From the NCBI GenBank assembly GCA_001782235.1, contig MFOC01000003.1:1-45850 (forward strand): a DNA stretch of 45,850 nucleotides, written 5' to 3'. The notes beneath the pieces were generated by a model, which worked only from the letters and a program-made list of their open reading frames with translations, was not told the DNA's origin and did no database searches. A program made the translations under genes and the position numbers. Source of the DNA: Candidatus Levybacteria bacterium RIFCSPHIGHO2_02_FULL_40_18 (GTDB lineage: Bacteria > Patescibacteriota > Microgenomatia > Levybacterales > GWA1-39-11). This document shows, in pieces, positions 3,627-42,159 of the stretch. The first letter of the stretch is position 1, and the number at the start of each line of letters is the position of its first letter.

Positions 3627-4060
3627 GAACTCAAAGCTCAAATCGCAAAACTCAAAATGAATCAAGAAGCATGAATCAAGAAGCAAGGAAAATAAGAAAT
3701 TTTACAGATTTGAACGCATGGAAAGAGGCTCATAGGCTGGTTTTATTTATCTATCGAATAACAAAGGACTTCCCTCGTGAAGAACTATTCGGACTAGTAA
3801 ATCAATTAAGACGTGCGGTTATTTCGATAACATCTAATATCGCTGAAGGATTTAGTAGGAGTTCTTATAAGGAGAAGTCTCAATTTTATTCGATGGCATT
3901 AGGCTCGCTAACTGAAGTTCAGAATCAGCTTATTGTATCAAGAGACTTAGGATACATAACAAAAAAGGATTTTGAAGAATTGGAAGATATAACTATTACA
4001 GTAAGCAAATTGCTTAATGGTCTTATTAAAAAATCTAAAACCATGATTCATAATTCATGA
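3623..4060 (+). CDS. Four-helix-bundle protein (23S rRNA intervening-sequence protein family)
   Basis: NFTDLNAWKEAHRLVL...ITSNIAEGFSRSSYKEKSQFYSMALGSLTEVQNQL is the family signature (PF05635/TIGR02436 type). In-frame ATG 3671 is an equally plausible start. Start and stop both lie inside the flanking inverted-repeat arms. Confidence 0.85.
   Translation: MRTQSSNRKTQNESRSMNQEARKIRNFTDLNAWKEAHRLVLFIYRITKDFPREELFGLVNQLRRAVISITSNIAEGFSRSSYKEKSQFYSMALGSLTEVQNQLIVSRDLGYITKKDFEELEDITITVSKLLNGLIKKSKTMIHNS
3637..3688. repeat. Left composite arm of the inverted repeat enclosing the four-helix-bundle gene
   Basis: CTCAAATCGCAAAACTC (3637-3653) is the reverse complement of 4075-4091 with 1 mismatch in 17. 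GAATCAAGAAGCATGAATCAAGAAGCAAGG (3659-3688) pairs with 4041-4070 at 24 of 30 positions (hand alignment). Confidence 0.7.
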
Positions 4061-4091
4061 TTCATGATTCTAACGAGTTTTGAGATTTGAG
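4041..4091. repeat. Right composite arm of the inverted repeat enclosing the four-helix-bundle gene
   Basis: CCATGATTCATAATTCATGATTCATGATTC (4041-4070), then TAAC, then GAGTTTTGAGATTTGAG (4075-4091). These are complementary to 3659-3688 and 3637-3653. Confidence 0.7.
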
Positions 4092-4131
4092 ATGTAGATT
4101 TGACATTTGATTTTTGACATTTGAGATAAAT

Positions 4132-4797
4132 ATGTCCGAAATATTTTTATATTATGCTCTTCTAACATCTGTTTTCCTCCTGTCAGGAGTTTTAATAGTT
4201 GTGATTCAATATCTTTTTAATGTTTTAAAAAAGAATAAGCTGTATCAAAAAGATGCGGTTCGTCACAGTCAAGAAATCATTTCACACGCAAATGAAAAAG
4301 CTAAACAGATAATATCTGAGGCGCAAGTTTTTTCAGACGAGGTCCGGCAAGGGAGTGATAAACTCATAGCAAGCCTTAAAGAATCTCAAAGAGAGGAACT
4401 TAAGAAGGCCGCAGACAGGCTTTTTGAAGAATATAAAGCTGCGCTGGAAGAAGTTTATAAAGAGAATATCAATATATTTAGAAATATATCAAAAGATATC
4501 GAAGAAAAGGCAGGTTTTGAAATTCGTGACTTTAAAGAGATTTTGGAAAAAGAAACAATCGAGTCCCAAAAGATTGTTGGTGAAAAAATAGAAACTGAAT
4601 ATCATGATGTACAAAAGGAGATTCAGGAGTACAAAAACCGCGAGCTTTTGAAGGTTCAGGAAAGCATTTATGGGATTGTACATAATGCCATTGAACTTGC
4701 AATCGGTAAATCGCTGGATCGACAAACCCAGGAGGAACTGGTAATGGAAGCTTTGAAAGAAGCCATCGAAAAACAAGAAACGTCAGAATCTAAATGA
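4132..4797 (+). CDS. atpF: F0F1 ATP synthase subunit b
   Basis: One N-terminal TM helix (IFLYYALLTSVFLLSGVLIVVI) followed by a long charged coiled coil. It sits immediately upstream of atpH-atpA. The ORF-track start at 4114 is a TTG inside the repeat arm, so ATG 4132 is preferred. Confidence 0.75.
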   Translation: MSEIFLYYALLTSVFLLSGVLIVVIQYLFNVLKKNKLYQKDAVRHSQEIISHANEKAKQIISEAQVFSDEVRQGSDKLIASLKESQREELKKAADRLFEEYKAALEEVYKENINIFRNISKDIEEKAGFEIRDFKEILEKETIESQKIVGEKIETEYHDVQKEIQEYKNRELLKVQESIYGIVHNAIELAIGKSLDRQTQEELVMEALKEAIEKQETSESK

Positions 4798-4926
4798 GAA
4801 TGGTTATTTGAAAATGGAAATTAGTAATGGAAGGAAGGAAATAGAAAATAGCTAAATAACACGAATTTCCAATATCTAATTTCTATTACCATTTTCTAAT
4901 TTCTTATAACCAATTTCTAAATATTA
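4798..4926. repeat. Low-complexity hairpin element (GGAAATT/AAAATGG word family) filling the atpF-atpH spacer
   Basis: Left half TTATTTGAAAATGGAAATTAGTAATGGAAGGAAGGAAATAGAAAATAG closely matches the reverse complement of 33745-33797. Right half CTAATTTCTATTACCATTTTCTAATTTCTTATAACCAATTTC is an imperfect complement. Related copies lie at 24056-24135, 32570-32697 and 33657-33800. Confidence 0.65.
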
Positions 4927-5382: not shown

Positions 5383-6863
5383 ATAATTTTGAAGACTATT
5401 TAAAAGAAATAGGAGAAATAGGATATGTTGAAGAGGTGGTTGGACCGATTGCTCAAGTGAGCGGTTTGCCGGGCGCAAAATGTGAAGAACTCGTGATGTT
5501 TGAAAGCGGGGAAATAGGTCAGGTCCTTTCTTTGTCCGAAGACTTTGTCGAAGTTCTAATATTTTCAAGAAACCCTATAAAGGTAGGCGTTAGGGCCGTC
5601 CGACTCAACAAGCCTTTTGAGATGCCGGTAGGACATGAATTGCTTGGGCAGATTATAGATCCTTTTGCACGGCCCTTTGACGAGACAAGGCCGGTAAAAA
5701 CCCCAAAAGACAGAAGAAATATTCTCGTTAAGGCCGCAGGAATCGACAAGCGAAGAACAATTAAAAGGCATTTAGTGACAGGTGTGACACTCGTTGACTT
5801 ATTAATACCAATCGGCTTTGGACAAAGAGAGCTTTTGATTGGAGACAGAAAAACCGGTAAGACAAATTTCCTCTTGGCCACAATTTTATCGCAGGCAAAA
5901 AGAGGAACTATCTGTATTTATGCTGTTATTGGCAAAAGAAAGATTGATATTAAAAAAATTGAAGACCTTTTTGTAAAGAATAAGGTCATGGATAACATTA
6001 TTATGATTGCAACAACATCTTTTGATCCGCAAGGATTAATCTATTTAACACCCTACTCCGCTATAACAATTGCGGAATATTTTCGAGACGCGGGAATAGA
6101 TACAATTTTAGTCATTGATGATCTATCAAATCATGCGAGGTTTTACAGAGAAATTTCACTTCTCGGCCGCCGTTTTCCGGGAAGAAATTCTTACCCTGCA
6201 GATATCTTTCACACACACGCACGGTTTATGGAAAGAGCCGGAAATTTTATAGTCGGCGACAAGGAGGTATCAATTACTGTGCTCCCGATAGTTGAAACAA
6301 ACCAGGGAGATCTCTCAGGCTACATTCAAACCAATCTCATGTCAATGACCGACGGCCACCTTTATTTTGATCAAGGCCTCTTTTCCCAAGGGATTCGCCC
6401 CGCGATTAATCCCTTCATATCGGTGACTCGTGTTGGTCAGCAAACCCAATCGTCTCTCCAGCGAAGCATTGCACGAGAGCTAAGATCTTTCCTTGTCTTG
6501 TATCAAAAAACAAAGCGATTTGTCCACTTTGGTGAAGAGATTAGCCAATCAATAAAGACAATTCTCGCAACGGGGGATAATCTTACCCGCTTCTTTCACC
6601 AACCTCCTTCAAGCATTACCTCAGAAAACATACAGATTTTTCTCTTTGCTTTGCTTTGGTCAAATTTCTTTGGAGATGAACCGTTTGAAAAAATAAAGCA
6701 GGATATGGATAAATGGAGAGTAATGTATGAGGAAAATAAAGCTTTTCACGATAACATAGATAATATGATTGCAACATCATCCCATTTAAATGAGCTGCTC
6801 TTGAAAATCAAGGGAATCCAAACCAAAAACAATCCAGACCAGAAGATCGTCTTAACAAGCTGA
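5379..6863 (+). CDS. atpA: F0F1 ATP synthase subunit alpha
   Basis: Walker A GDRKTGKT, then ICIYAVIGKR, LPIVETNQGDLSGYIQTNLMSMTDGHLYF and RPAINPFISVTRVG. Confidence 0.95.
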   Translation: MNNFEDYLKEIGEIGYVEEVVGPIAQVSGLPGAKCEELVMFESGEIGQVLSLSEDFVEVLIFSRNPIKVGVRAVRLNKPFEMPVGHELLGQIIDPFARPFDETRPVKTPKDRRNILVKAAGIDKRRTIKRHLVTGVTLVDLLIPIGFGQRELLIGDRKTGKTNFLLATILSQAKRGTICIYAVIGKRKIDIKKIEDLFVKNKVMDNIIMIATTSFDPQGLIYLTPYSAITIAEYFRDAGIDTILVIDDLSNHARFYREISLLGRRFPGRNSYPADIFHTHARFMERAGNFIVGDKEVSITVLPIVETNQGDLSGYIQTNLMSMTDGHLYFDQGLFSQGIRPAINPFISVTRVGQQTQSSLQRSIARELRSFLVLYQKTKRFVHFGEEISQSIKTILATGDNLTRFFHQPPSSITSENIQIFLFALLWSNFFGDEPFEKIKQDMDKWRVMYEENKAFHDNIDNMIATSSHLNELLLKIKGIQTKNNPDQKIVLTS

Positions 6864-6926
6864 ATCAAGAAGCAAGAATCAAGAAGCAGGGGGGAACCAT
6901 GATTCATGATTCAAGATTCATGATTC
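6862..6926. repeat. Cargo-less hairpin with the same arms as the four-helix-bundle cassette
   Basis: GAATCAAGAAGCAAGAATCAAGAAGCAGG (6862-6890), loop GGGGAA, then CCATGATTCATGATTCAAGATTCATGATTC (6897-6926). About 23 of 30 positions are complementary. The left arm is almost identical to 3659-3688 and to the reverse complement of 36639-36668. Confidence 0.75.
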
Positions 6927-6933
6927 AAAACAT

Positions 6934-14624: not shown

Positions 14625-16508
14625 ATGGCATTCCATAAAAAAATATTTTCTCTGTATCATCAAACCGGAGCCTTACTCATAGTCTTGATAGTTTTAACAG
14701 GCTCAATATTCTATGTAATTTTGGGCGGTCAAGGTGAACAAAAATCACAACCCCAACCAATATCAGAAATTACAAACAAAGAACAATTTGTTGAAATTGC
14801 GGAAACTTCCGTGCCGGGCACCTTTGAATCAGGCGCGTCATGTGCGGGAGGAGCTGATGGAAACTACAATGTGGTAAAGAATGGCATTACTCTCCACGTT
14901 TGCGAAGCATCTCAAGGAGAAGTTTGCAGAATTTATAGCACAGGTGCCGAATGCGTTCAAACAATTAGCAGTGGCGGAAGTGATGGATGCACACAGCATT
15001 CTCAATGTGTCGTTGGATTTTGTCTTGACAGCTTCCAGGAAAACTTGCCCAACTATTGTTTCAGCGGAGGAGGCGGTCCAGGATCGGAATGCAGAGGTTA
15101 CGACGGTTTAGATATAGATATTATCTGTAGATCGGGTAATTGCGATAGTGGGTATTGTGTCGGCGACGCACCTCAACCGACTCAACCAGGTGGCGGCGGT
15201 GATGCTTGTGCAGGGACTCCCGGTTATAACACTACAAATATGGCATGTATTAACTATTTGGGAAATGACTATTTCCCTGAAGGAGACGCATCAAGTCCTG
15301 CAGCCTGCCAAACTTCCTGCCAGAATGATTCAAATTGCGCCGCTTGGACTTGGGTAAGGCCAGGTGTTCAGGGATCGAGCGCTCATTGCTATAAAAAGAA
15401 TCCAAAACCTGCCTCTGTTGCAAATAGTCCTGCAGACTGCTGCATTTCTGGAGCAAAGACGGGCGGAGCTCCTATACCAACACAGCCAGGTGGATACCAA
15501 CCTGTTCCCACAAACATCCCTGTACCCACCCAGCAGCCGGGTGACGGGAACATCCAATATAGTCTTTCACTAAATGTATCGCCTACACAAGTTAAGCCAG
15601 GTGAAAGCGTAACCCTTTGTTATGCATTAACTCCTCAAAATATTCCTTTTCATGTCCGGCTTCTTTCATCATCAGGGGGAACATTTACATTAGTGTCGGA
15701 GTGGGACGATAATGGTATTGGAGGAGGAGACTGCATCGGCGTTAAAATCAATGCTGGCGCAACTCCCGGCTCAAGACAACTAAAAGTAGAAGCAATAGTT
15801 AATAATTCAAAAGTAGCCGAAGAAACAGTTTCTATAACGATTACAGGCGGCACAGGAGGCAGTTCCCCGACTGCGACCCCCACTCCAACGCCGACAAAAA
15901 CTCCAACGCCCACTTTAACACCCACTCTAACTAACACTCCTACTCCGACAGCAAGCCCTACGCCTACTTCCCAGCAGCCTAGTCCAACTCCAACCCTTTC
16001 TCCGAACCAAAGCTCAATCGCGCTCACTATAAAACTAGCCGGAATCGGTTCAAATACATCTCTTGGACAAAATAATAATCCCGTGAAAACCAGCCTCCCT
16101 GTTGAAATTCAGGTTTTTAATTTAAATAGTCAGAAAATTAAAGATGTGGGGGGCAATCTGATTTTTGATTCTGCCACGGCAAGCTTCAAAGGTACTGTCT
16201 TCCTTGGATCGGATCTCACAGAATCAGCATATGTGTTTAAAGTAAGGCTAAATAACGCTCTATGGAAAGCGATAACTTCACAAATTACACCCGGACAAAC
16301 AACTAACCTACCTGAGAAAGAGCTTATTTCAGGAGATCTTGATCAAAATAATGAGCTTAACTTGCTTGATTACAACGCGCTTATCTCCTGCTACGGCTCC
16401 AAATCATGTTCAAATAAGGAAAAGGCGGATCTCAATCTTGACGGGAAAGTCGACGAGCTCGACTTAAATATCTTCTACGCCGCCCTTGCGAAGCGAACAG
16501 GCGACTAA
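14625..16508 (+). CDS. Secreted/anchored protein: TM anchor, Cys-rich region, PAN/Apple-like domain, Ig-like domain, PT linker, Ig-like module plus dockerin-like C-terminus
   Basis: PAN-like [31 protein letters not shown]. Linker [35 protein letters not shown]-terminal [22 protein letters not shown]...[17 protein letters not shown]. Confidence 0.8.
16332..16497 (+). repeat. 166-bp perfect direct repeat, copy 1 (dockerin-like coding segment)
   Basis: Identical base for base to 18066-18231 in my hand alignment. Flanks diverge immediately on both sides. Confidence 0.9.
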
Positions 16509-16556: not shown

Positions 16557-18242
16557 GTGGGTCTTATAACCTTTAACATTCCGAGTCGCAAGAATATTAT
16601 TGCCGCAATTGTTGTTTTTTTAAGTCTAATTGGACTGCCTGTGATAATTTGGCAAATTGGAAGGACGCAGGATATCAGACAGAAGGCGGCGGAAACTAGC
16701 GCTCTTGACTCATCGCCCCAAATTATCGTCATTGACGGCAAGTGCTCTCAAGATAATGGTTTGGTTGTTGTCCAGGAAGGAGCCATCATTGAAAACTATC
16801 TAATTAAGAACGTGCGTGAGGCGGGGATCAGGGTGGAGGCTCCGAACGTTACCATTCGCAATGTCGAGATAGTAAATCCAGACTGCGATGGTTCTGGCGA
16901 TCAATTTGCCGCAGGAGTTGCCTGCTGGCAACCGTGTACGGGCCTGAAAGTTTTAGACTCTAAAATCACTGGCAACTCTGCCAGACGTGGTAATGGCATA
17001 TGGATGAAAAATACTAATTCCTCCCATGGCATAGGTAATCATTATATTGCCCGTAACGTAATCTCCTCTGTTTGGGATGGAATTGGATCTGAGGCGGAAG
17101 GTGATGCATGGGGAGGCTTCGTTGCCAACTCACTTGTGGAAGCCAATCGAATCACCAACTGTGCCGACGACGGTATACAGATGGAAGGCCGCAATGAGAA
17201 CATTACAGTGCGCCGCAATGAGATTTCCGGGTGTGGCATAGGAATTGCCTACGCGCCCAGCTTAGTTGGGCCGCTTTATATAGAAAACAACTATATCCAT
17301 AATCTAATAACGGGCGACTACGGACAACAGGCCTGTTACAAAGTTGGTAGCAACTCTGCAGGGGACATATTTATTTCCGGCGAGCGTTGTTTTGGGCCCG
17401 GTGACGGCATCAAGCAAACCAATTCAGGATCGCTGGGACGCGTTGTGAGTCATAATAACTGCTATATTGTAACACGGTACGTTGTTGAATATACGTCAGT
17501 GCCACAAGCTCCTTCTGGCACTAGCCTTAATTTTGAAGGTGATACAATGTTCTCCTCCGACCCTTCCAGATTTGTGAAGTGGAATGGTAGTGCGATTAGC
17601 TTTGAGCAATTTAACACACTGCCTCAAGTTGGGACAGAAGTACTGAGTCAAAATTGCCCAAATGATAATCCCATAATAACTCCTTCACCAACGCTTACCC
17701 CAATATTCATACCTAGCCCAACTCCTACGGTCGCTGCCAATCAAGCTTCAATTTTGTTCGACATCAAACTTGTTGGTATTGGATCAAATACTGTCATTGG
17801 ACAAAATCCGAATCCTATAAGATCATCTATTCCTCTTGAGGTCCAGATACTATCTACTCAAAATCAGCCAGTATTGGATACATCGGGGTTGCTTACATAC
17901 AACAGTAGCACATCAAGCTTTCAAGGCAATGTAAATCTTGGATCAAGTCTTTCTCAAGGAGCATACATTATCAAGATTAGGTTAAATAATACTCTTCGTC
18001 GTTCTTTAATCACTCAGGTAAACCTGGGGCAAACAACTGGTTTGGCTCCGCAGGAACTTATTCTGGGAGATCTTGATCAAAATAATGAGCTTAACTTGCT
18101 TGATTACAACGCGCTTATCTCCTGCTACGGCTCCAAATCATGTTCAAATAAGGAAAAGGCGGATCTCAATCTTGACGGGAAAGTCGACGAGCTCGACTTA
18201 AATATCTTCTACGCCGCCCTTGCGAAGCGAATCGGTGACTAG
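16557..18242 (+). CDS. Secreted/anchored right-handed parallel beta-helix (pectate-lyase-fold) protein with Ig-like module plus dockerin-like C-terminus
   Basis: Repetitive beta-helix coils: NVTIRNVEIVN, ITNCADDGIQMEGRNENITVRRNEISGCGIGI, IENNYIHN. GTG start (the ATG two bases upstream is out of frame). The C-terminal ~55 aa are identical to the previous protein. Confidence 0.75.
   Translation: MGLITFNIPSRKNIIAAIVVFLSLIGLPVIIWQIGRTQDIRQKAAETSALDSSPQIIVIDGKCSQDNGLVVVQEGAIIENYLIKNVREAGIRVEAPNVTIRNVEIVNPDCDGSGDQFAAGVACWQPCTGLKVLDSKITGNSARRGNGIWMKNTNSSHGIGNHYIARNVISSVWDGIGSEAEGDAWGGFVANSLVEANRITNCADDGIQMEGRNENITVRRNEISGCGIGIAYAPSLVGPLYIENNYIHNLITGDYGQQACYKVGSNSAGDIFISGERCFGPGDGIKQTNSGSLGRVVSHNNCYIVTRYVVEYTSVPQAPSGTSLNFEGDTMFSSDPSRFVKWNGSAISFEQFNTLPQVGTEVLSQNCPNDNPIITPSPTLTPIFIPSPTPTVAANQASILFDIKLVGIGSNTVIGQNPNPIRSSIPLEVQILSTQNQPVLDTSGLLTYNSSTSSFQGNVNLGSSLSQGAYIIKIRLNNTLRRSLITQVNLGQTTGLAPQELILGDLDQNNELNLLDYNALISCYGSKSCSNKEKADLNLDGKVDELDLNIFYAALAKRIGD
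18066..18231 (+). repeat. 166-bp perfect direct repeat, copy 2
   Basis: Identical to 16332-16497. Confidence 0.9.
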
Positions 18243-24055: not shown

Positions 24056-24135
24056 CTATTGGAAATTGGTTATTAGATATTAGATAATGGTTTTACTAAT
24101 TTCCATTTTCCAATAACCATTTTCTTGCAATAACC
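24056..24135. repeat. Hairpin element of the GGAAATTGG word family, upstream of the PEGA gene
   Basis: CTATTGGAAATTGGTTATTAGATATTAGATAATGG, then TTTTA, then CTAATTTCCATTTTCCAATAACCATTTTCTTGCAATAACC. The arms are imperfectly complementary and use the same words as 4798-4926, 32570-32697 and 33657-33800. Confidence 0.6.
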
Positions 24136-26402: not shown

Positions 26403-26426
26403 TCATTCACACTATTCTATAGCTAA

Positions 26427-26435
26427 TGGTATAAT
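26427..26435 (+). promoter_or_regulatory. Extended -10 promoter TGGTATAAT (cassette A)
   Basis: Exact TGnTATAAT, 14 nt upstream of the conserved leader. The same nonamer occurs at 38353-38361 in the paralogous locus. Confidence 0.6.
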
Positions 26436-26448
26436 CCACTTAGGTTCT

Positions 26449-26571
26449 AAGGAACTTTCCCAAACTCGCATAAAAGCTGTGTGAGAACTGGCTATTGGCT
26501 TTTGGCGCTTTGCTTCTGGCTTATGCTAACAGCTAAAGGCTAAATGCTAACAGCTATTTGGGATCGCACCT
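26449..26571 (+). promoter_or_regulatory. Conserved 123-nt 5' leader, copy A (candidate structured cis-regulatory RNA)
   Basis: Matches 38376-38498 at 122 of 123 positions by hand alignment (G/A difference in CTTTTG[G/A]CGC). Possible CCCAAA...TTTGGG closing helix, CTCGCA/TGTGAG hairpin, and a long GU-containing pairing of GGCTATTGGCTTTTGGC with GCTAAATGCTAACAGCT. Confidence 0.6.
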
Positions 26572-26627
26572 TATCAACTGACACGGACATCTACTCGGAA
26601 AGCCTATATTCAAAAAAGGAGGTTGTT

Positions 26628-26807
26628 TTGAGCCTGTCAAGAATAATTGACTTGACTCTTTTAATCTCGGTCATAATAGCAGTTTTCCTTGGTCCAAATC
26701 CCTTGGGACTTGGATTTGGAATACTGGCAGGGCTGGCTTTGGTGGTTAAGATTCTTCGTGATCGATTCCGAAGAACACAAAGCCTTCCTCGGAAAAAGGG
26801 AAAATAA
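26628..26807 (+). CDS. 59-aa two-TM small membrane protein
   Basis: AAGGAGG at 26616-26622, then a TTG start 5 nt later. Sequence: LSLSRIIDLTLLISVIIAVFLGPNPLGLGFGILAGLALVVKILRDRFRRTQSLPRKKGK. The ORF-track start at 26544 lies in the leader, which is non-coding in copy B. Confidence 0.6.
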   Translation: MSLSRIIDLTLLISVIIAVFLGPNPLGLGFGILAGLALVVKILRDRFRRTQSLPRKKGK

Positions 26808-26808
26808 G

Positions 26809-26988
26809 ATGAGGGATACATTTCTAGTCAATCTGGCCCTTTGCGCTCTGATCGGCGTTCTAATATTCACCATCGGCCTCCTAACTTCACAAGAGGTAAT
26901 TTATGGGATAGCCATTTCAGTATCCCTTGTTTTGACAGGTATAGTCTTTTGCCGTAAAGGGCTTAAAGGAACAACTCGACACAACTAG
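26809..26988 (+). CDS. 59-aa two-TM small membrane protein
   Basis: The ATG is 1 nt after the previous stop. Sequence: MRDTFLVNLALCALIGVLIFTIGLLTSQEVIYGIAISVSLVLTGIVFCRKGLKGTTRHN. This is the internal start of track ORF 26689-26988. Confidence 0.6.
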   Translation: MRDTFLVNLALCALIGVLIFTIGLLTSQEVIYGIAISVSLVLTGIVFCRKGLKGTTRHN

Positions 26989-27029
26989 CCGCTCGCGAAG
27001 ATTCGCGAAGCGAGAAACGGAGGAAAACG

Positions 27030-27224
27030 ATGAGAAATCTTAAGTGGCTGCTTCTGGCAGTTACGCTCACCGCATTTGGAATCGGAGTACAGTACGCCAT
27101 CCAGTGGTCCCTCGATTGGGAACACGAAACCATGGTTGCGACCATGATTGGCATAACTATGCTATCTTTTGCGGTAGCCGCTGTTCTCATGTTCGTAGCC
27201 GAAAAACTCAACCTCAATATCTAG
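27030..27224 (+). CDS. 64-aa two-TM small membrane protein
   Basis: GGAGG lies 7 nt upstream of the ATG. Sequence: MRNLKWLLLAVTLTAFGIGVQYAIQWSLDWEHETMVATMIGITMLSFAVAAVLMFVAEKLNLNI. Confidence 0.6.
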   Translation: MRNLKWLLLAVTLTAFGIGVQYAIQWSLDWEHETMVATMIGITMLSFAVAAVLMFVAEKLNLNI

Positions 27225-27259
27225 CCGCTCGCAGACACGAGTAAGAAAGGAAAGGGAAG

Positions 27260-27565
27260 ATGAACATAGTATTGGTTCTCGCAGAGATTGCGATCGCAGT
27301 CATTGGATATTTTGCTCTCCGAGCAAAGTACGTCTGGCTGGTCAAAGACCAAGGCATACACCCAATGTACGTAATTGTCGGGCTTGTTCTCATGCTGAGT
27401 TTCACTCTAATGTCGATGATGATTTCGATTGGGGTTGAAACATTCACGTGGACCAGCGCGATAATCCTTATGCCAGCACCGCTGATGCTTGCTTTGCCGC
27501 TCTTGTTGGGCAAGCTCGAGCGCCGCATCAACACTGGCCGCGCCCACCGATCTAAAACCGAATAG
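27260..27565 (+). CDS. 101-aa three-TM small membrane protein
   Basis: A purine-rich RBS (GGAAAGGGAAG) precedes the ATG. Hydrophobic segments IVLVLAEIAIAVIGYFAL, YVIVGLVLMLSFTLMSMMISIGV and AIILMPAPLMLALPLLLG, with a basic tail. Confidence 0.6.
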   Translation: MNIVLVLAEIAIAVIGYFALRAKYVWLVKDQGIHPMYVIVGLVLMLSFTLMSMMISIGVETFTWTSAIILMPAPLMLALPLLLGKLERRINTGRAHRSKTE

Positions 27566-28539: not shown

Positions 28540-28602
28540 GGTTTTAGTATCATGTATTTTGTATTATGTATCAAGTATTAAATTATACATGCTACATGAT
28601 AC

Positions 28603-32551: not shown

Positions 32552-32569
32552 AGTCTAACTTGTGTTCTA

Positions 32570-32697
32570 GAAAATAGTTGTAGGAAATTGGACAATGGTT
32601 ATAGAAATAGGATATTGAAAATAAGTATTTAAAAGCTATTTTCTATTTTCAATTTTCCATTACTAATTTCTATTTTCTAATAACCAATTTCTTGTTT
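32570..32697. repeat. Hairpin element (GGAAATTGG word family) separating the two comEC ORFs
   Basis: Left arm GGAAATTGGACAATGGTTATAGAAATAGGATATTGAAAATAAG. Right arm CTATTTTCTATTTTCAATTTTCCATTACTAATTTCTATTTTCTAATAACCAATTTC. The upstream ORF's last codons and stop (..KKLVIRK*) lie inside the right arm. Confidence 0.65.
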
Positions 32698-33656: not shown

Positions 33657-33800
33657 GGGAAATTGGTTGTTAGAAATTAGAAAATGGTTATAGAAATTAG
33701 ATACTAGAAATTGGGGTTATTTATTATTATTTAACTATTTTCTATTTTCCACACTCCATTACTAATTTCCATTTTCAAATAACTATTTTCAAATACTCTA
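33657..33800. repeat. Hairpin element (GGAAATTGG word family) between comEA and comEC
   Basis: Left arm GGAAATTGGTTGTTAGAAATTAGAAAATGGTTATAGAAATTAGATACTAGAAATTGG. Right arm CTATTTTCTATTTTCCACACTCCATTACTAATTTCCATTTTCAAATAACTATTTTC. Confidence 0.65.
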
Positions 33801-35584: not shown

Positions 35585-38317
35585 TCAAATAACAAAATTT
35601 ATAATGCGGCCGGGGATGTAAATGACGTTTTTCACGGATTTTCCTGCAACGTATTTTTCGACTTCTTTTCGCGCGAGAGATTCGACCTCATTCTTTTTTC
35701 CAATGTTCGAACTATCAATCGTGACTTCTCCTCGTCTTTTTCCATTCACCTGAACCACAACGGTAACTTTTTCTTGGACTAAATATTTTTCATCATATTT
35801 TGGCCACTCACTAAAGTGAATGGAATCACGAATCATGAATTTTGAATCATGGTTAATTTCCCCTTGATTCTTGCTTCTTGCTTCATGCTTCATTTCTTGC
35901 CATACCTCCTCCGCCAAATGTGGCGCGAACGGTGCGAAAAGCCTGAGATATGATCTCGCGGTTTGCTGCGACCATGATTTATTGTTGTCCGAAATGAAGT
36001 TGTAAAATTCCATTAGCCTTGCTATTGCCGTATTATAAGAGAATTCTTCAATGTCAAGCGTTACTTTTTTAATGGTCTTATTTATCATTTGAAGTGTATC
36101 TTGATTGTCCTCCCCGAACTCTTTTGTGGTAAACAAGTTCCAAACCCTGCGCACGAAACGGTGCATTCCTTCGATTCCGGTATCGCGAAAATCTCCACCT
36201 TGAGAAAATGGGCCAAGAAACATAAGATAAAGCCTTAAAGTATCGGCTCCGAATTTTTCAATGTAAATGTCAGGAACAACTATGTTGCCACGCGACTTGC
36301 TCATTTTGGCACCCTCTGAGATAATAAGTCCGTGCGCAAAAAAGCGTGGGAAAGGCTCGGCGAAAGGCAAAGCTAGATCATGGATCTTAGATCTTAGATT
36401 TTGGATATTGATTTTCGATCTATTATCTATGATCGATAATCTATCATCTAAATTTAGATCATGCAATACCATCGCTATAAAACGAACATATAAAAGATGT
36501 AGCACCGAATGCTCTGCTCCGCCAATGTAAATTGCTATGGGACACCACCGCCTTACGATCTTCAGATCGTAAGGAATGTCCAATTTCAAATTTCCAATTT
36601 CCAATGGTTGATCCGATTTGATGTCTTTAGAACTAGTTCCTTGCTTCTTGATTCTTGCTTCTTGATTCTGAATGCTCAAATAGCGCAGGTAGTACCAGGA
36701 TGAGTCTAAGAAGGTATCGGAAACATCCGTTTCACGTTTTGCAGAACTATTACAGGATGGGCACTTTGTTTGGTAGAACTCCGGATGGTTTGCTAAAGGA
36801 GACGTTCCTGTTCCTTCCGGCCGCCAATCTTTTACGTCAGGGAGCTCGACCGGCAACTGTTCTTCCGGTACTGCTCGAATCATATGTTCCCTCCCGTCAA
36901 TTATTGCGTAATCCCTGCCTTCGATCAGTTTTGAATTTTGAGTTTTGAGTTTTGAGTTTCCCCAGCATTTACGACAGTAAATGATGGGAATCGGCGGGCC
37001 CCAATATCTTTGGCGTGAAATCAACCAATCCCGCAGATGATAAGTTGTTTCTGGTCCTCCGGCTCTGTACCTCTCAAGCCACTGGGCTATTTTCTTCTTT
37101 GCTTCGGCCGAACTCAAACCTGAAAACTCACCTGAATCAAATAAAACCCCGTCCCCGGTGAAACACTCCTCAAGACTATCGATTCGCTTATCTTTTTTTT
37201 TGTCTCCTGTATGCAACGTAGGCTTAAGTCGAATACCATACTTTTTGGCAAATTCAGTATCGCGCTCGTCATGCGCATCTCCAAACAAAGCACCTGTACC
37301 GTAGCCCATTACCGCGTAATCTGCGATCCAAATAGGAATTTTCTCTTTGTTAACCGGGTTTATACCATATAGACCGGAAAATACGCCAGTTTTTTCTTTG
37401 TTCTCGATCCTCTCCTTATCCGATTTCTTTTTCGCCTTTTCAATATATTGCTGGACAAACTTATCTCTGATTGACGTTGAAATCGGGTGCTCAGGAGCAA
37501 GCACTAAAAAGGTGGCGCCGAACAAAGTATCTGCTCGTGTAGTAAACACCTCTATCTCCTTAATTTTTAACTTTGAATTTTGAACTTTGAACTTGATTCG
37601 GGAACCCTCTGATTTTCCTATCCACTGGCGCTGGGCAATCTTTATCTTTTCCGGCCAATCAATCTGGTTCAAACCATTAAGAAGTGCATCAGCATATGCG
37701 GTAATTTTAAAGAACCATTGTTCGAGGTCGCGCTTCTCGACAACTGACGAACAACGCTCGCAGCGCCCGTCGATTACTTGTTCATCCGCTAAAACGGTTT
37801 TATCCGAAGGGCACCAATTGACCCGGGCTTTTTTGCGGTAAGCCAACCCTTTTTTAAACATTTGTACAAATATCCACTGTGTCCATCTATAATAATCCGG
37901 ATCATAAGTCTCTAAAGTCCTTGTCCAGTCATAAGCGTTTCCGGTTGCCCGAAGCTGTCTATAAAAATTCTTTTCTGAAATTTTGGCCTGCTCTCTCGGG
38001 TGGCGGCCAACCGCAAGCGCATAGTTCTCAGAATGTATGCCAAACCCGTCAAGTCCGATCGGCTCAAAAACATCCTTACCCTTCATTCTCATGTAGCGAC
38101 CGTGAATATCTGCTCCTGTAAAAGCATACATATTCCCTACATGTAGGCCCTCTGCCGAAGGATATGGAAACATCATTAGTGTGTAGTAGGGATTTTTAGC
38201 ATTTTTAAGATCAGGCGAAAAAGTTTTATTTTCCTCCCAATATTTCTGCCATTTGACCTCAATCTCTTGCGGTTTATACTGCGCCTTCCTATTCATAGCA
38301 CAATTATACCTAATCAT
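35585..38317 (-). CDS. leuS: Leucyl-tRNA synthetase with several low-complexity in-frame insertions
   Basis: PYPSAEGLHVGN (HIGH region), KMSKS, WCPSDKTVLADEQV, VFTTRADTLFGATF, RDWLISRQRYWGPPIP. The likely true start is MNRKAQYKPQEIEVKWQKYW, with its ATG at complement 38294-38296. Confidence 0.95.
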   Translation of the reverse strand: MIRYNCAMNRKAQYKPQEIEVKWQKYWEENKTFSPDLKNAKNPYYTLMMFPYPSAEGLHVGNMYAFTGADIHGRYMRMKGKDVFEPIGLDGFGIHSENYALAVGRHPREQAKISEKNFYRQLRATGNAYDWTRTLETYDPDYYRWTQWIFVQMFKKGLAYRKKARVNWCPSDKTVLADEQVIDGRCERCSSVVEKRDLEQWFFKITAYADALLNGLNQIDWPEKIKIAQRQWIGKSEGSRIKFKVQNSKLKIKEIEVFTTRADTLFGATFLVLAPEHPISTSIRDKFVQQYIEKAKKKSDKERIENKEKTGVFSGLYGINPVNKEKIPIWIADYAVMGYGTGALFGDAHDERDTEFAKKYGIRLKPTLHTGDKKKDKRIDSLEECFTGDGVLFDSGEFSGLSSAEAKKKIAQWLERYRAGGPETTYHLRDWLISRQRYWGPPIPIIYCRKCWGNSKLKTQNSKLIEGRDYAIIDGREHMIRAVPEEQLPVELPDVKDWRPEGTGTSPLANHPEFYQTKCPSCNSSAKRETDVSDTFLDSSWYYLRYLSIQNQEARIKKQGTSSKDIKSDQPLEIGNLKLDIPYDLKIVRRWCPIAIYIGGAEHSVLHLLYVRFIAMVLHDLNLDDRLSIIDNRSKINIQNLRSKIHDLALPFAEPFPRFFAHGLIISEGAKMSKSRGNIVVPDIYIEKFGADTLRLYLMFLGPFSQGGDFRDTGIEGMHRFVRRVWNLFTTKEFGEDNQDTLQMINKTIKKVTLDIEEFSYNTAIARLMEFYNFISDNNKSWSQQTARSYLRLFAPFAPHLAEEVWQEMKHEARSKNQGEINHDSKFMIRDSIHFSEWPKYDEKYLVQEKVTVVVQVNGKRRGEVTIDSSNIGKKNEVESLARKEVEKYVAGKSVKNVIYIPGRIINFVI

Positions 38318-38352
38318 ATCCCTAGTAGCTAGTCACTAGTTGCTAATTTAAG

Positions 38353-38361
38353 TGGTATAAT
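38353..38361 (+). promoter_or_regulatory. Extended -10 promoter TGGTATAAT (cassette B)
   Basis: Same nonamer and same spacing to the conserved leader as at 26427-26435. Confidence 0.6.
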
Positions 38362-38375
38362 CAGGTCAAGTTCAG

Positions 38376-38498
38376 AAGGAACTTTCCCAAACTCGCATAA
38401 AAGCTGTGTGAGAACTGGCTATTGGCTTTTGACGCTTTGCTTCTGGCTTATGCTAACAGCTAAAGGCTAAATGCTAACAGCTATTTGGGATCGCACCT
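38376..38498 (+). promoter_or_regulatory. Conserved 123-nt 5' leader, copy B
   Basis: 122 of 123 positions identical to 26449-26571. The internal ATG (ATGCTAACAGC...) hits a stop after 8 codons here, so the leader is non-coding. Confidence 0.6.
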
Positions 38499-38538
38499 GA
38501 AAAACTAACCACGGACAAAATCAAGGAGGTTTCGCCGG

Positions 38539-38703
38539 ATGAAAATAACTCTTGTGGGAATCATCATCGTTCTCCTTAGCAGCATGGTCGCCTATGGCAT
38601 CTTAATCCGGGTATTCGGAGAAAACACAGGAGGATCAATCTTTATCGGTGCCTTTGTAATTATGCTTAGCCTTTACCTTCTTAGCAAGCGGAGCAAGCCT
38701 TAA
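38539..38703 (+). CDS. 54-aa two-TM small membrane protein
   Basis: AAGGAGG lies 9 nt upstream of the ATG. Sequence: MKITLVGIIIVLLSSMVAYGILIRVFGENTGGSIFIGAFVIMLSLYLLSKRSKP. Below the ORF-track cutoff. Confidence 0.55.
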   Translation: MKITLVGIIIVLLSSMVAYGILIRVFGENTGGSIFIGAFVIMLSLYLLSKRSKP

Positions 38704-38743
38704 GGCACTCATAAGCCTCAATTTAAGAAAGGGGAGGGTAATT

Positions 38744-39169
38744 GTGAGGTCCCAGCCTCAATTGCGCGCGTTGAGACGCATCCAGTACCTAGTCTGCCTA
38801 TGGTCGGGAACGCTCATGATGCTTCTTGCAATCTTTGTGTTTGCGACCATCCCCGGGGAAAAAGGGAGTGATCTAACTCTAGGTGTCTCGAATGAGGTAC
38901 CAAGCGTTTTGTTCTGGAAGGCAGGACACCTGTTTGGCTTTGCGCTTTTTGCCGGGTTTTTAACCCTTGCGGCAAGCGCAACATTTAACCAGAACATCCC
39001 AGGCGCCAGGATCAAAGCAGTGGTTATTATCGTCGGGATTCTTATGGCGATAACAACCGAGCTCCTTCAGAGCTTTGTCCCGGGGCATATACCCGCAATC
39101 TACGATATCGGCATTGACGTTGCTGGTACTGCTCTCGGAATAAAGTTCGCTATTCTATGGCGAAAGTAG
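38744..39169 (+). CDS. VanZ-like family membrane protein
   Basis: KAGHLFGFALFAGFL, ITTELLQSFVPGHIPAIYDIGIDVAGTALGI. GTG start preceded by GGGGAGG. Confidence 0.6.
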   Translation: MRSQPQLRALRRIQYLVCLWSGTLMMLLAIFVFATIPGEKGSDLTLGVSNEVPSVLFWKAGHLFGFALFAGFLTLAASATFNQNIPGARIKAVVIIVGILMAITTELLQSFVPGHIPAIYDIGIDVAGTALGIKFAILWRK

Positions 39170-39184
39170 TAAAAGGAGGCGCCG

Positions 39185-39277
39185 ATGCAGCCACCGATTG
39201 AAGCGCTCGTCTTTGTTCTCGTCATTCTGACGATCATTAGCGCGATCGTCAAGTCACGCGATCGAAGGCAGCCATGA
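39185..39277 (+). CDS. Possible 30-aa single-TM peptide
   Basis: AAGGAGG lies 5 nt upstream of the ATG. Sequence: MQPPIEALVFVLVILTIISAIVKSRDRRQP. Confidence 0.35.
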   Translation: MQPPIEALVFVLVILTIISAIVKSRDRRQP

Positions 39278-39419
39278 ATAACGTCCGTGGGAAAGGAAGC
39301 GCTCTTTCGCCTTATTGGCGAATTCCGATTCATCGGAAACAAATACACAAATTGAGCGCTTCCTCCACACTTCCTCGAACATACTCGATACTGAATATTC
39401 AATACTGTATACTATAAAC

Positions 39420-41163: not shown

Positions 41164-42159
41164 ATGAAAAAGGTTCTCTGGCTTTTGGCTTTTGGCTTTT
41201 GGCTTTTGGCCCTTATGTTTCCGATTGTCTATTCTATTCCCTTAAGCGTAAGCGCTCAAAAAAACAAAGGCCAGTTCTCGCTTGGTATTTATCCGCCGAT
41301 TTTTGAAATCAACGCGCAAGCTCCGGCAAATATAGACGCCAAAATTAATATCCAAAATTTAAGCGAGTTCAGCCAGAACCTATCAATCACCTTCAAGTCT
41401 TTCAGGCCGGACGAAAAGGGAGACGGAACCCTTAGGTATGAAGCTGCCCCCCCAACCCTTCAGAAAATTAAGGTTTACGATGGAGAAAATCCTTTGGAAC
41501 AAATCACGCTTGATCCCTTTGAGTCCCGTGATCTTGCTCTTAAGATGGATATCGAGTCTAATACGCCCGGGGGTGATTATTACTTTTCAGTAATCTTTTT
41601 GTCGCAAGAGAATCAAGACTCAAAGATTTCTCAATCTAAAATAACCGGAGGGATAGGCACTAATGTAATACTGTCAGTTGGCAGGAAAGGCCCTTTCAGG
41701 GGACAAATTAAGGAGTTCAGCATCCCCCGCCTTGTAACTCACGGCCCCGTACCTATTACTTTACTACTTGCGAATAATAGCAGTTACTATTTAAATCCGA
41801 CAGGCAGAATAATTATTCAAGATATGTTTCACAGAGAAGCGGGACAAATTAATATTTTACCTCAATATGTTCTTGCTAATTCTTCTCGCTTTATGAAAGA
41901 TTCTGATCAAGCCTCTCCAACCTTCGAGCGTGCGGCTCAAATCGAAAGGTTAGAGAGCGACCATCCTGTTTTAATCTGGCCCGAAACGTTTCTCTTTGGA
42001 CTATACACAGCCTATGCCCATATTAAACTATCCGAGAATGGACCGGTATTTGAAACTAAGGCTAGTTTTATCGCCATACCGGCTTATATGCTCTTTGCTA
42101 TTTCATTCTTGGCCTTTGTCCTTATCGGAATATACCTTCGCGTGAAAAAGAAAATCTAA
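41164..42159 (+). CDS. Surface protein with C-terminal TM anchor, DUF916/DUF3324-like (partner of WxL proteins in Firmicutes)
   Basis: Signal peptide. FSLGIYPPIFEINAQAPANIDAKINIQNLSEFSQNLSITF resembles the start of DUF916. C-terminal AIPAYMLFAISFLAFVLIGIYLRVKKKI is an anchor. A heptanucleotide repeat lies in the signal-peptide codons. Confidence 0.5.
   Translation: MKKVLWLLAFGFWLLALMFPIVYSIPLSVSAQKNKGQFSLGIYPPIFEINAQAPANIDAKINIQNLSEFSQNLSITFKSFRPDEKGDGTLRYEAAPPTLQKIKVYDGENPLEQITLDPFESRDLALKMDIESNTPGGDYYFSVIFLSQENQDSKISQSKITGGIGTNVILSVGRKGPFRGQIKEFSIPRLVTHGPVPITLLLANNSSYYLNPTGRIIIQDMFHREAGQINILPQYVLANSSRFMKDSDQASPTFERAAQIERLESDHPVLIWPETFLFGLYTAYAHIKLSENGPVFETKASFIAIPAYMLFAISFLAFVLIGIYLRVKKKI

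Follow-up and report, generated by a model that had tools for sequence, protein, structure and literature searches.

Two 123-nt segments on a contig of a Candidatus Levybacteria bacterium are almost letter-for-letter copies of each other, and each lies between a promoter and a run of very small membrane-protein genes. The question they raise is whether this identity marks an RNA element held constant by selection or has some other origin, and what the leader that contains the segment might do. Throughout, the window is the whole stretch of DNA that was analysed, 45,850 nt in length. The two blocks, copy A and copy B, align without gaps and differ, as the earlier note on this DNA had reported, at a single base (G26505 in A, A38432 in B). 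A gapped pattern of the block has two exact matches in the window, against 0.00 expected from 100 shuffles. Copy B of a strain contig (L089) has G at this position; the two copies are 123/123 identical there, and the one-base difference is a population polymorphism. The copy count of two refers to the window plus a 6.3-kb extension, about 52 kb of genome. Exact and gapped block patterns gave no match in GTDB genomes, JGI metagenome contigs or IMG/VR, a weak negative because the organism's own contigs were likewise not returned, and blastn of the block against phage and plasmid collections gave no match either.

The view that the block is non-coding holds up, since each of the six frames is either closed or not consistent from one copy to the other, and none has a Shine–Dalgarno (SD) sequence. 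Its internal ATG (26544) is indeed open in copy A, where it runs in frame into the first downstream gene, A1, but the copy B frame stops after nine codons rather than the eight previously counted. Gene callers give an 87-aa product from this ATG in copy A; used as a protein query, that product matched only itself, and no homologue with the block-encoded N-terminus was found. A short peptide encoded by the block, for instance in the 20-codon GTG frame VRTGYWLLALCFWLMLTAKG, is scarcely credible. One frame is open through most of the block in both copies, but the GTG of this frame has no SD where neighbouring genes have strong ones, the G/A polymorphism is non-synonymous in it, and the remaining ATG frames differ between A and B. 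At the gathering threshold of Rfam 15 the block belongs to no family, and the whole window yields just two matches above it, both tRNAs; permissive Rfam scans of both loci returned only sub-threshold eukaryotic snoRNA and miRNA noise (E >= 0.7).

Each block follows the proposed promoter element TGGTATAAT by 13–14 nt. A consensus scan of promoter A shows a near-consensus -35/-10 pair, 11/12 with TG, and transcription would start 6–7 nt past the -10, at about 26442 for copy A and about 38368 for copy B. The extended -10 TGNTATAAT occurs at three sites in the window, one of them besides the two leaders. Downstream, both loci have AAGGAGG followed by a tiny ORF, as described before, although the distance from the block is 45 nt in A and 25 nt in B, not 45–55 nt in both. 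The flanks had been said to differ between the copies. We found instead that they are homologous, at ~63–66% identity, from the -35 region to ~20 nt beyond the block. The left flanks match at 31/47 positions and the right flanks at 17/27, compared with 122–123/123 in the core (Fisher p ~3e-13), and the matching islands are the -35 TCAC, TGGTATAATC and AACTNAC(C)ACGGACA. The features of both loci are collected in Table 1.

Table 1. Features of the two leaders, their cassettes, the orthologous slots and a second repeat family (window coordinates unless a contig is named).
Feature	Position	Strand	Description
Promoter A	26406..26435	+	-35-like TTCACA 26406-26411, 18-nt spacer, extended -10 TGGTATAAT 26427-26435
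Block A	26449..26571	+	123 nt; predicted three-way junction
P0 (block A)	26450-26452 with 26569-26571	+	AGG/CCU; fold
P1 (block A)	26458-26464 with 26557-26563	+	UCCCAAA/UUUGGGA, 7-bp closing helix; fold
P2 (block A)	26465-26485	+	hairpin, 8 bp, CUCGCAUA/UGUGUGAG; fold
P3 (block A)	26489-26556	+	long interrupted helix, 27 bp, with G·U pairs; includes G26505; TRF, fold, strain comparison
Box A	26576..26590	+	AACTGACACGGACAT; core CACGGACA common to copy B and related species
SD and cassette A	26616..27565	+	SD AAGGAGG 26616-26622; genes A1-A4
A1	26628-26807	+	59 aa, 2 TM, TTG start
A2	26809-26988	+	59 aa, 2 TM
A3	27030-27224	+	64 aa, 2 TM
A4	27260-27565	+	101 aa, 3 TM
Promoter B	38332..38361	+	GTCACT at the -35 position, extended -10 TGGTATAAT 38353-38361; AAGTGGTATAATC identical in L005
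Block B	38376..38498	+	123 nt, helices as in block A; A38432 gives an A·C mismatch in P3
Box B	38507..38521	+	AACCACGGACAAAAT; 15/15 identical to the orthologous L005 leader
SD and cassette B	38523..39277	+	SD AAGGAGG 38523-38529; B1, B2 and a 30-aa ORF
B1	38539-38703	+	54 aa, 2 TM, ATG start
B2	38744-39169	+	VanZ-like, 141 aa
Uncalled 30-codon single-TM ORF	~39185-39277	+	MQPPIEALVFVLVILTIISAIVKSRDRRQP; behind AAAGGAGG, directly after the VanZ-like gene
Box, L005	~1114-1100	-	
Box, L092	~4785	-	
leuS/B3 slot, window	38318-39419		
leuS/B3 slot, L005	1-1270		
leuS/B3 slot, L092	3100-5000		
leuS/B3 slot, L085	9744-10001		
leuS/B3 slot, L087	8425-8504		
leuS/B3 slot, L091	1661-1929		
Second palindromic family	4796-4919	-	
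Second palindromic family	32568-32691	+	
Second palindromic family	33659-33791	+	
Second palindromic family, partial	24059-24124		

The minimum-free-energy fold of both copies contains all three of the helices that had been proposed (P1, P2 and P3), in a predicted three-way junction in which 6 of 50 pairs are G·U. The plus strand is also the folding strand, as the G·U pairs had been taken to imply: against shuffled sequences the plus-strand z-score is -4.35 for copy A and -3.16 for copy B, compared with -0.79 for the minus strand, and copy A is the third most stable 130-nt plus-strand window of the whole sequence. With the start site placed as above, leader nucleotides 2–5 are paired. The first four to five bases of the SD (AAGG/AAGGA) are largely unpaired in both copies (probability 0.6–1.0), and its last two to three bases pair locally, not with the block. 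No terminator-like site was found downstream of the block in either copy. Because the SD is free and a terminator is missing, the block would act as an autonomous 5′ domain and not as a switch that sequesters the SD or terminates transcription. The sole variant between A and B breaks a predicted G-C pair in P3, and the number of compensatory pairs among the copies is zero.

P3 is made of two inverted period-7 tandem arrays, (TGGCTTT)x4.9 at 26489-26522 and (GCTAAAA)x4.6 at 26525-26556 as delimited by TRF, which reports the second array again in copy B (38452-38483). The G·U pairs of P3 arise because the GGCU core of the repeat unit pairs with itself through wobble. P3 is an inverted pair of heptamer arrays, so a hairpin built of repeats, of a type found genome-wide, makes up 55% of the block; a 7-nt tandem unit is present in P3 alone, and the 5′ 40 nt and 3′ 15 nt of the block lie outside it. 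There are 30 period-7 arrays in the window, 14 of them mainly within the 11% that is intergenic by an approximate gene map (binomial p ~1e-6). Many window spacers hold two inverted heptamer arrays that fold as long hairpins, and the same is seen in relatives. When P3 is removed, the window leader still folds well (z = -4.2).

Repeats of this and other kinds are widespread in the window. Arrays of period 7, and also 14 and 21, lie for example at 3628-3685, 4042-4127, 4864-4920, 6862-6927, 28543-28580, 32636-32692 and 33659-33749, and period-7 arrays are also abundant in L085, L087 and L091, three contigs of related species. Seven heptamer arrays lie inside leuS on the minus strand (including 35863-35891, 36374-36450, 36575-36669, 36927-36959 and 37562-37594), where they coincide with low-complexity insertions (QNSKLKIKE, KLKTQNSKL) that are missing or different in relatives, and a further array (41179-41210) encodes the signal-peptide region of a 331-aa protein. 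A gene for a 23S rRNA intervening-sequence protein (3671-4060; PF05635, E = 3e-38) stands outside any rRNA gene and is bracketed by the inverted heptamer arrays 3628-3685 and 4042-4127, resembling the stem of an intervening sequence. A second palindromic repeat family, ~125–130 nt long and 62–89% identical, occupies intercistronic spacers (Table 1); relative to the genes on either side, its three full copies are all oriented alike. A 215-nt repeat with a perfectly identical 166-nt tract (16332-16497 and 18066-18231) is found at the 3′ ends of two neighbouring paralogous genes for PAN/dockerin-type surface proteins. This tract looks like the product of gene conversion; a template/variable-region pair of a diversity-generating retroelement (DGR) was considered for the repeat and rejected, as the mismatches at its edges are not adenine-specific. 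Two further spacers are unusually structured. The GC-rich segment 21431-21560, between a MerR-type gene and a WecG gene, reaches -54 kcal/mol per 130 nt on either strand and matches nothing in Rfam at E up to 1. The intergenic segment 29751-29880 folds with a strong plus-strand bias (-49 vs -33 kcal/mol) next to genes on the minus strand, and holds a perfect 12-bp hairpin with 9- and 17-nt repeats. The region 42.2-43.9 kb, at one point taken for a non-coding gap, belongs to a 1331-aa ORF that runs off the window.

The two leaders head unrelated clusters of very small membrane-protein genes. As noted previously, the first ORFs, A1 and B1, have two hydrophobic segments each, but a comparison of the two proteins found no similarity, and we found no repeats shared by cassettes A and B beyond the leader. 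Locus A lies between a PEGA-domain gene and a histidine kinase gene, and locus B is divergent from leuS; identification of the block as a T-box or other leuS leader was dismissed because it is on the wrong strand. The G+C content is 0.51 for B2 and 0.47 for A1–A4, compared with a window mean of 0.416.

We turn to the same loci in other genomes. Proteins of the window match exactly on contigs of up to 141–193 kb from groundwater and aquifer metagenomes, and relatives of its LeuRS are mostly labelled Candidatus Levybacteria (Microgenomates/Patescibacteria). The syntenic locus was compared in five species whose LeuRS is ~60–71% identical to that of the window by BLASTP and 63–74% in a MAFFT alignment. 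In L085/L086 (71%), L087 (67%) and L091 (65%), leuS is directly divergent from a homologue of the 246-aa protein B3, and the block, B1 and B2 are absent at this locus; the copy A slot between the PEGA and histidine kinase genes holds an unrelated gene and no cassette in L085/L086 and L087. Divergent from leuS, L005 (61%) carries a two-TM ORF of 44 aa and a VanZ-like gene, which matches Pfam VanZ and is 33% identical to B2. Upstream of them lie AAGTGGTATAATC and AACCACGGACAAAAT, which match copy B at 13/13 and 15/15 positions, respectively, and then AAAGGAGG. In L092 (60% by BLASTP, 63% by MAFFT), TGATATAAT is followed after 93 nt by ACACGGATA, then by GGAAAGG and a two-TM ORF of 50 aa. Small ORFs and VanZ are also present in a fourth species, in which the contig of P0012 has them (ORFs of 53, 54 and 66 aa) beside leuS. 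A variable cassette site separates leuS from the B3 homologue: small TM ORFs, with or without a VanZ gene, fill it in the window, L005, L092 and the P0012 contig, and it is empty in L085/L086, L087 and L091. Other routes to related loci gave little: B2 led to none in metagenomes, where the organism itself was likewise not returned, and the 315-aa upstream protein led to none in viral contigs; a homology search with the latter gave few matches, and the 51% relative is not syntenic.

The fixed relation of the leader to its downstream ORFs, on which the earlier note had staked its proposal, is borne out by these loci: promoter, leader, SD and two-TM mini-ORF recur at orthologous positions. The composite of extended -10 and box occurs only in these four leaders in the 2.19 Mb scanned on both strands, which indicates that the module is conserved and tied to the two-TM mini-ORF, with proteins that evolve fast. 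The box core CACGGA[CT]A stands between the leader structure and the SD in all four leaders. The box matches at 15/15 positions between copy B and L005, two loci whose VanZ-like orthologues are only 33% identical. It has some likeness to CsrA-type sites of the form A(N)GGA, and its L005 and L092 versions overlap a perfect TTGACA. GGA counts in the four leaders are 5, 5, 5 and 3 vs ~2 expected (p = 0.007, 0.04, 0.02 and 0.5), and no CsrA-like ORF was found in the DNA scanned, which is a small part of each genome.

What recurs between species is not the block itself. The distance from the -10 to the box core is 74 nt in L005 and 93 nt in L092, vs 145–147 nt in the window (147 nt in copy B), and similarity of the leader middles is not significant (z = 0.4 for window/L005, ~2.2–2.5 for window/L092 and -1.1 for L005/L092). 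Judged by these alignments, the block is the variable part of a module conserved across species, and the conserved parts are its flanks. Near-identity had been read as the mark of a selected functional element; that reading is not supported here, as the flanks persist across species and the sequence between them differs. Structural covariation, too, could not be demonstrated. Covariance models of the full block (R1) and of the block minus P3 (R2) recovered only the window copies and missed L005 and L092, and MAFFT with RNAalifold on the four leaders kept only 4 pairs, giving no usable consensus. The L005 minimum-free-energy fold has a 7-bp helix (CAAUCCU/GGGAUUG) that encloses a 7-bp hairpin (CACGAUA/UAUCGUG) at the P1–P2 position, with no P3; L092 forms a hairpin (GGCAAA/UUUGCC) with AAAAGCU in its loop region, as in the window P2, and a short hairpin at the P3 site. 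These folds are no better than those of shuffled sequences (z = -1.3 and -0.25), and the helix correspondences were picked by eye and are not reproduced by MAFFT with RNAalifold. The likeness would fit an old P1–P2 core with a P3 expanded by heptamers in the window species; it is suggestive only, a lead and not covariation. It would, if real, make P1–P2 an older, selected portion of the block and come nearer to the view of the earlier note.

Why, then, are the two copies identical? We infer a recent gene conversion or copying event between paralogous leaders, not base-by-base selection. The core is identical at 122–123 of 123 positions, loops and bulges included, beside flanks that have diverged by ~35–40%, and recent conversion or copying explains this better than selection on every base would. 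As A1 and B1 are unrelated, it was the leader that was copied and not the operon. The 166-nt identical tract in the paralogous surface-protein genes indicates that sequence homogenisation occurs in this genome, which makes conversion plausible. Against conversion, it would need longer flanking homology than the 10–15-nt islands now visible, and a copy-and-paste mobile element would yield the same pattern of identity. Such an element, a small non-autonomous mobile palindrome of the MITE, ERIC or Correia-like kind inserted independently in two similar 5′ regions, would account for the sharp edges of the identical core and for the absence of the block from the orthologous L005 site, and it would have company in the dispersed palindromic family of ~125–130 nt in intercistronic spacers of the same genome and in the heptamer arrays found inside ORFs too. 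By inspection the ends of the block are imperfect inverted repeats (11/15), which correspond to the P0/P1 closing helix. Target-site duplications are lacking, the flanks GGTTCT and TATCAA of one copy and GTTCAG and GAAAAA of the other being without direct repeat. Just two copies occur in ~52 kb and pattern scans elsewhere are empty, though the host genome may be missing or masked there. Finally, A and B run in one direction and are framed at equivalent positions by one shared pair of motifs, which makes an exchange between paralogues an easier explanation than insertion. We consider a mobile element decidedly unlikely; it is the second rival of the reading that we prefer.

With moderate confidence, we favour the block as a species-specific structured insert in an older module of promoter, leader and mini-membrane-protein gene, serving as a 5′ stability or processing domain and made identical by conversion or copying. 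The older module comprises the extended -10 TGNTATAAT, a leader of 75–150 nt, a CACGGAYAA box, an SD and a two-TM ORF of 44–59 aa. It lies divergent from leuS in at least three Levybacteria-type species, with a second, paralogous copy at the PEGA/histidine kinase locus of the window organism. The block would be the species-specific structured middle of the 5′ untranslated leader of this module, with the inverted heptanucleotide arrays placed between the P2 hairpin and the 3′ strand of P1. Its RNA is predicted to form an autonomous three-way junction that starts within a few nucleotides of the putative 5′ end and leaves the SD free. If it has a role, the likeliest, by analogy with known leaders, is that of a 5′-terminal protective domain or an RNase III-type processing domain governing how stable the cassette mRNAs are. 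The block is probably not a ligand sensor.

The main rival is a leader that senses a ligand or protein. The earlier proposal of a candidate cis-regulatory RNA or processing signal stands in part: the block is non-coding, folds in a strand-specific manner, matches no Rfam family and sits in an arrangement that is fixed in two more species, but covariation could not be demonstrated, the SD is accessible and covariance models bring up no homologue. In its strict form this alternative is a true cis-regulatory RNA, a three-way-junction sensor of a ligand, temperature or a protein, with a P1–P2 core and a P3 of variable length, that controls the two-TM cassettes. It would explain why the order of promoter, leader, box, SD and two-TM ORF is kept in 4/4 leaders from three species, and it is consistent with the enclosing helix and hairpin of L005 at the P1–P2 place, with the two L092 hairpins, with the stable fold of the P3-less window leader and with the modest enrichment of GGA motifs in three of the four leaders. 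The comparison between species argues the other way, since the leader middles are not significantly similar, L005 and L092 fold at shuffle level, the P3-less covariance model misses both, RNAalifold keeps only four pairs and the helix correspondences were chosen by eye. Nor does the leader have a terminator or a sequestered SD, and the only variant disrupts a pair. We regard such a sensor as unlikely. A bolder version, to which we give little credence, is that of a new cis-regulatory leader of candidate-phyla-radiation bacteria, in which the P1–P2 junction and the box would form a protein- or ligand-binding core and P3 would be a variable arm enlarged in this species by heptanucleotide expansion. 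A separate small RNA gene, or a locus like type I toxin–antitoxin systems in which a structured 5′ UTR controls a toxic hydrophobic peptide, could be imagined from the strong promoter, the long structured 5′ region, the small hydrophobic ORF and the presence of two copies. We judge it very improbable, as the block lacks a terminator behind it and each two-TM ORF is the first of a cassette of 3–4 genes; moreover, no antisense promoter was found at copy A, and B1 contains only a weak consensus match.

The preferred reading, a structured insert homogenised between two paralogous leaders, carries a caution for genome scans: near-perfect non-coding identity within one genome may reflect conversion or repeat dynamics and not selection, and here it is the less striking flanks that are conserved across species. 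Gene regulation in candidate-phyla-radiation bacteria is very poorly known. Should the module prove regulatory, it would be among the first lineage-specific leaders defined for these bacteria, linked to small membrane proteins that evolve rapidly and to a VanZ-like protein. If the reading with a P1–P2 core is true, simple-sequence repeats would have remodelled a regulatory RNA. The abundance of inverted heptamer arrays in the spacers and genes of this lineage is a separate question of genome biology.

Several known systems resemble parts of this arrangement. ERIC, REP/BIME and the Correia elements of Neisseria are short palindromes repeated in intergenic DNA and transcribed together with genes (PMC2649163, PMC2229807, PMC10969869). 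Like them, the block is ~100–150 nt long, an imperfect palindrome that would form a long RNA hairpin in a transcribed spacer beside start codons, and by analogy it is a potential RNase III substrate able to alter mRNA stability. Unlike them, it has no sequence relation to these families and no target-site duplication, it is seen in two copies, in one orientation and at the same place, and its promoter is not part of the identical core. Heptanucleotide units form long simple-sequence repeats in bacterial spacers, an example being TAACTGA in Beggiatoaceae, Cyanobacteria and Bacteroidetes (PMC4679880; see also the survey of Mrazek et al. 2007, as cited in PMC4679880). The arrays described here share the period of 7, the concentration in intergenic regions near start codons and the occasional presence within ORFs, but TAACTGA repeats are direct repeats of one unit, whereas here many degenerate heptamers typically form two inverted arrays and hence a hairpin. 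Type I toxin–antitoxin mRNAs such as zorO, tisB and aapA (PMC3874152 for the class) likewise have a long structured 5′ UTR ahead of a small hydrophobic ORF and occur in several copies in one genome. In the present loci, by contrast, each leader is followed by an operon whose first protein has two TM segments, and there is no evident gene for an antisense RNA.

Two classes of leader are closer in layout. Three-way-junction riboswitch aptamers consist of a closing helix and two hairpins in a 5′ UTR, and the block has this predicted topology and location. Unlike in riboswitches, an expression platform, a conserved junction and covariation were not found; the block matches no Rfam family, and the middle of the leader is not conserved between species. 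Stabilising stem-loops at the 5′ terminus of mRNAs are known from the E. coli ompA 5′ UTR and from the B. subtilis aprE and the cryIIIA STAB-SD leaders. The domain formed by the block would be much larger than these, a three-way junction of ~130 nt, but it resembles them in having structure within a few nucleotides of the putative 5′ end, an accessible SD, and a strong promoter and SD.
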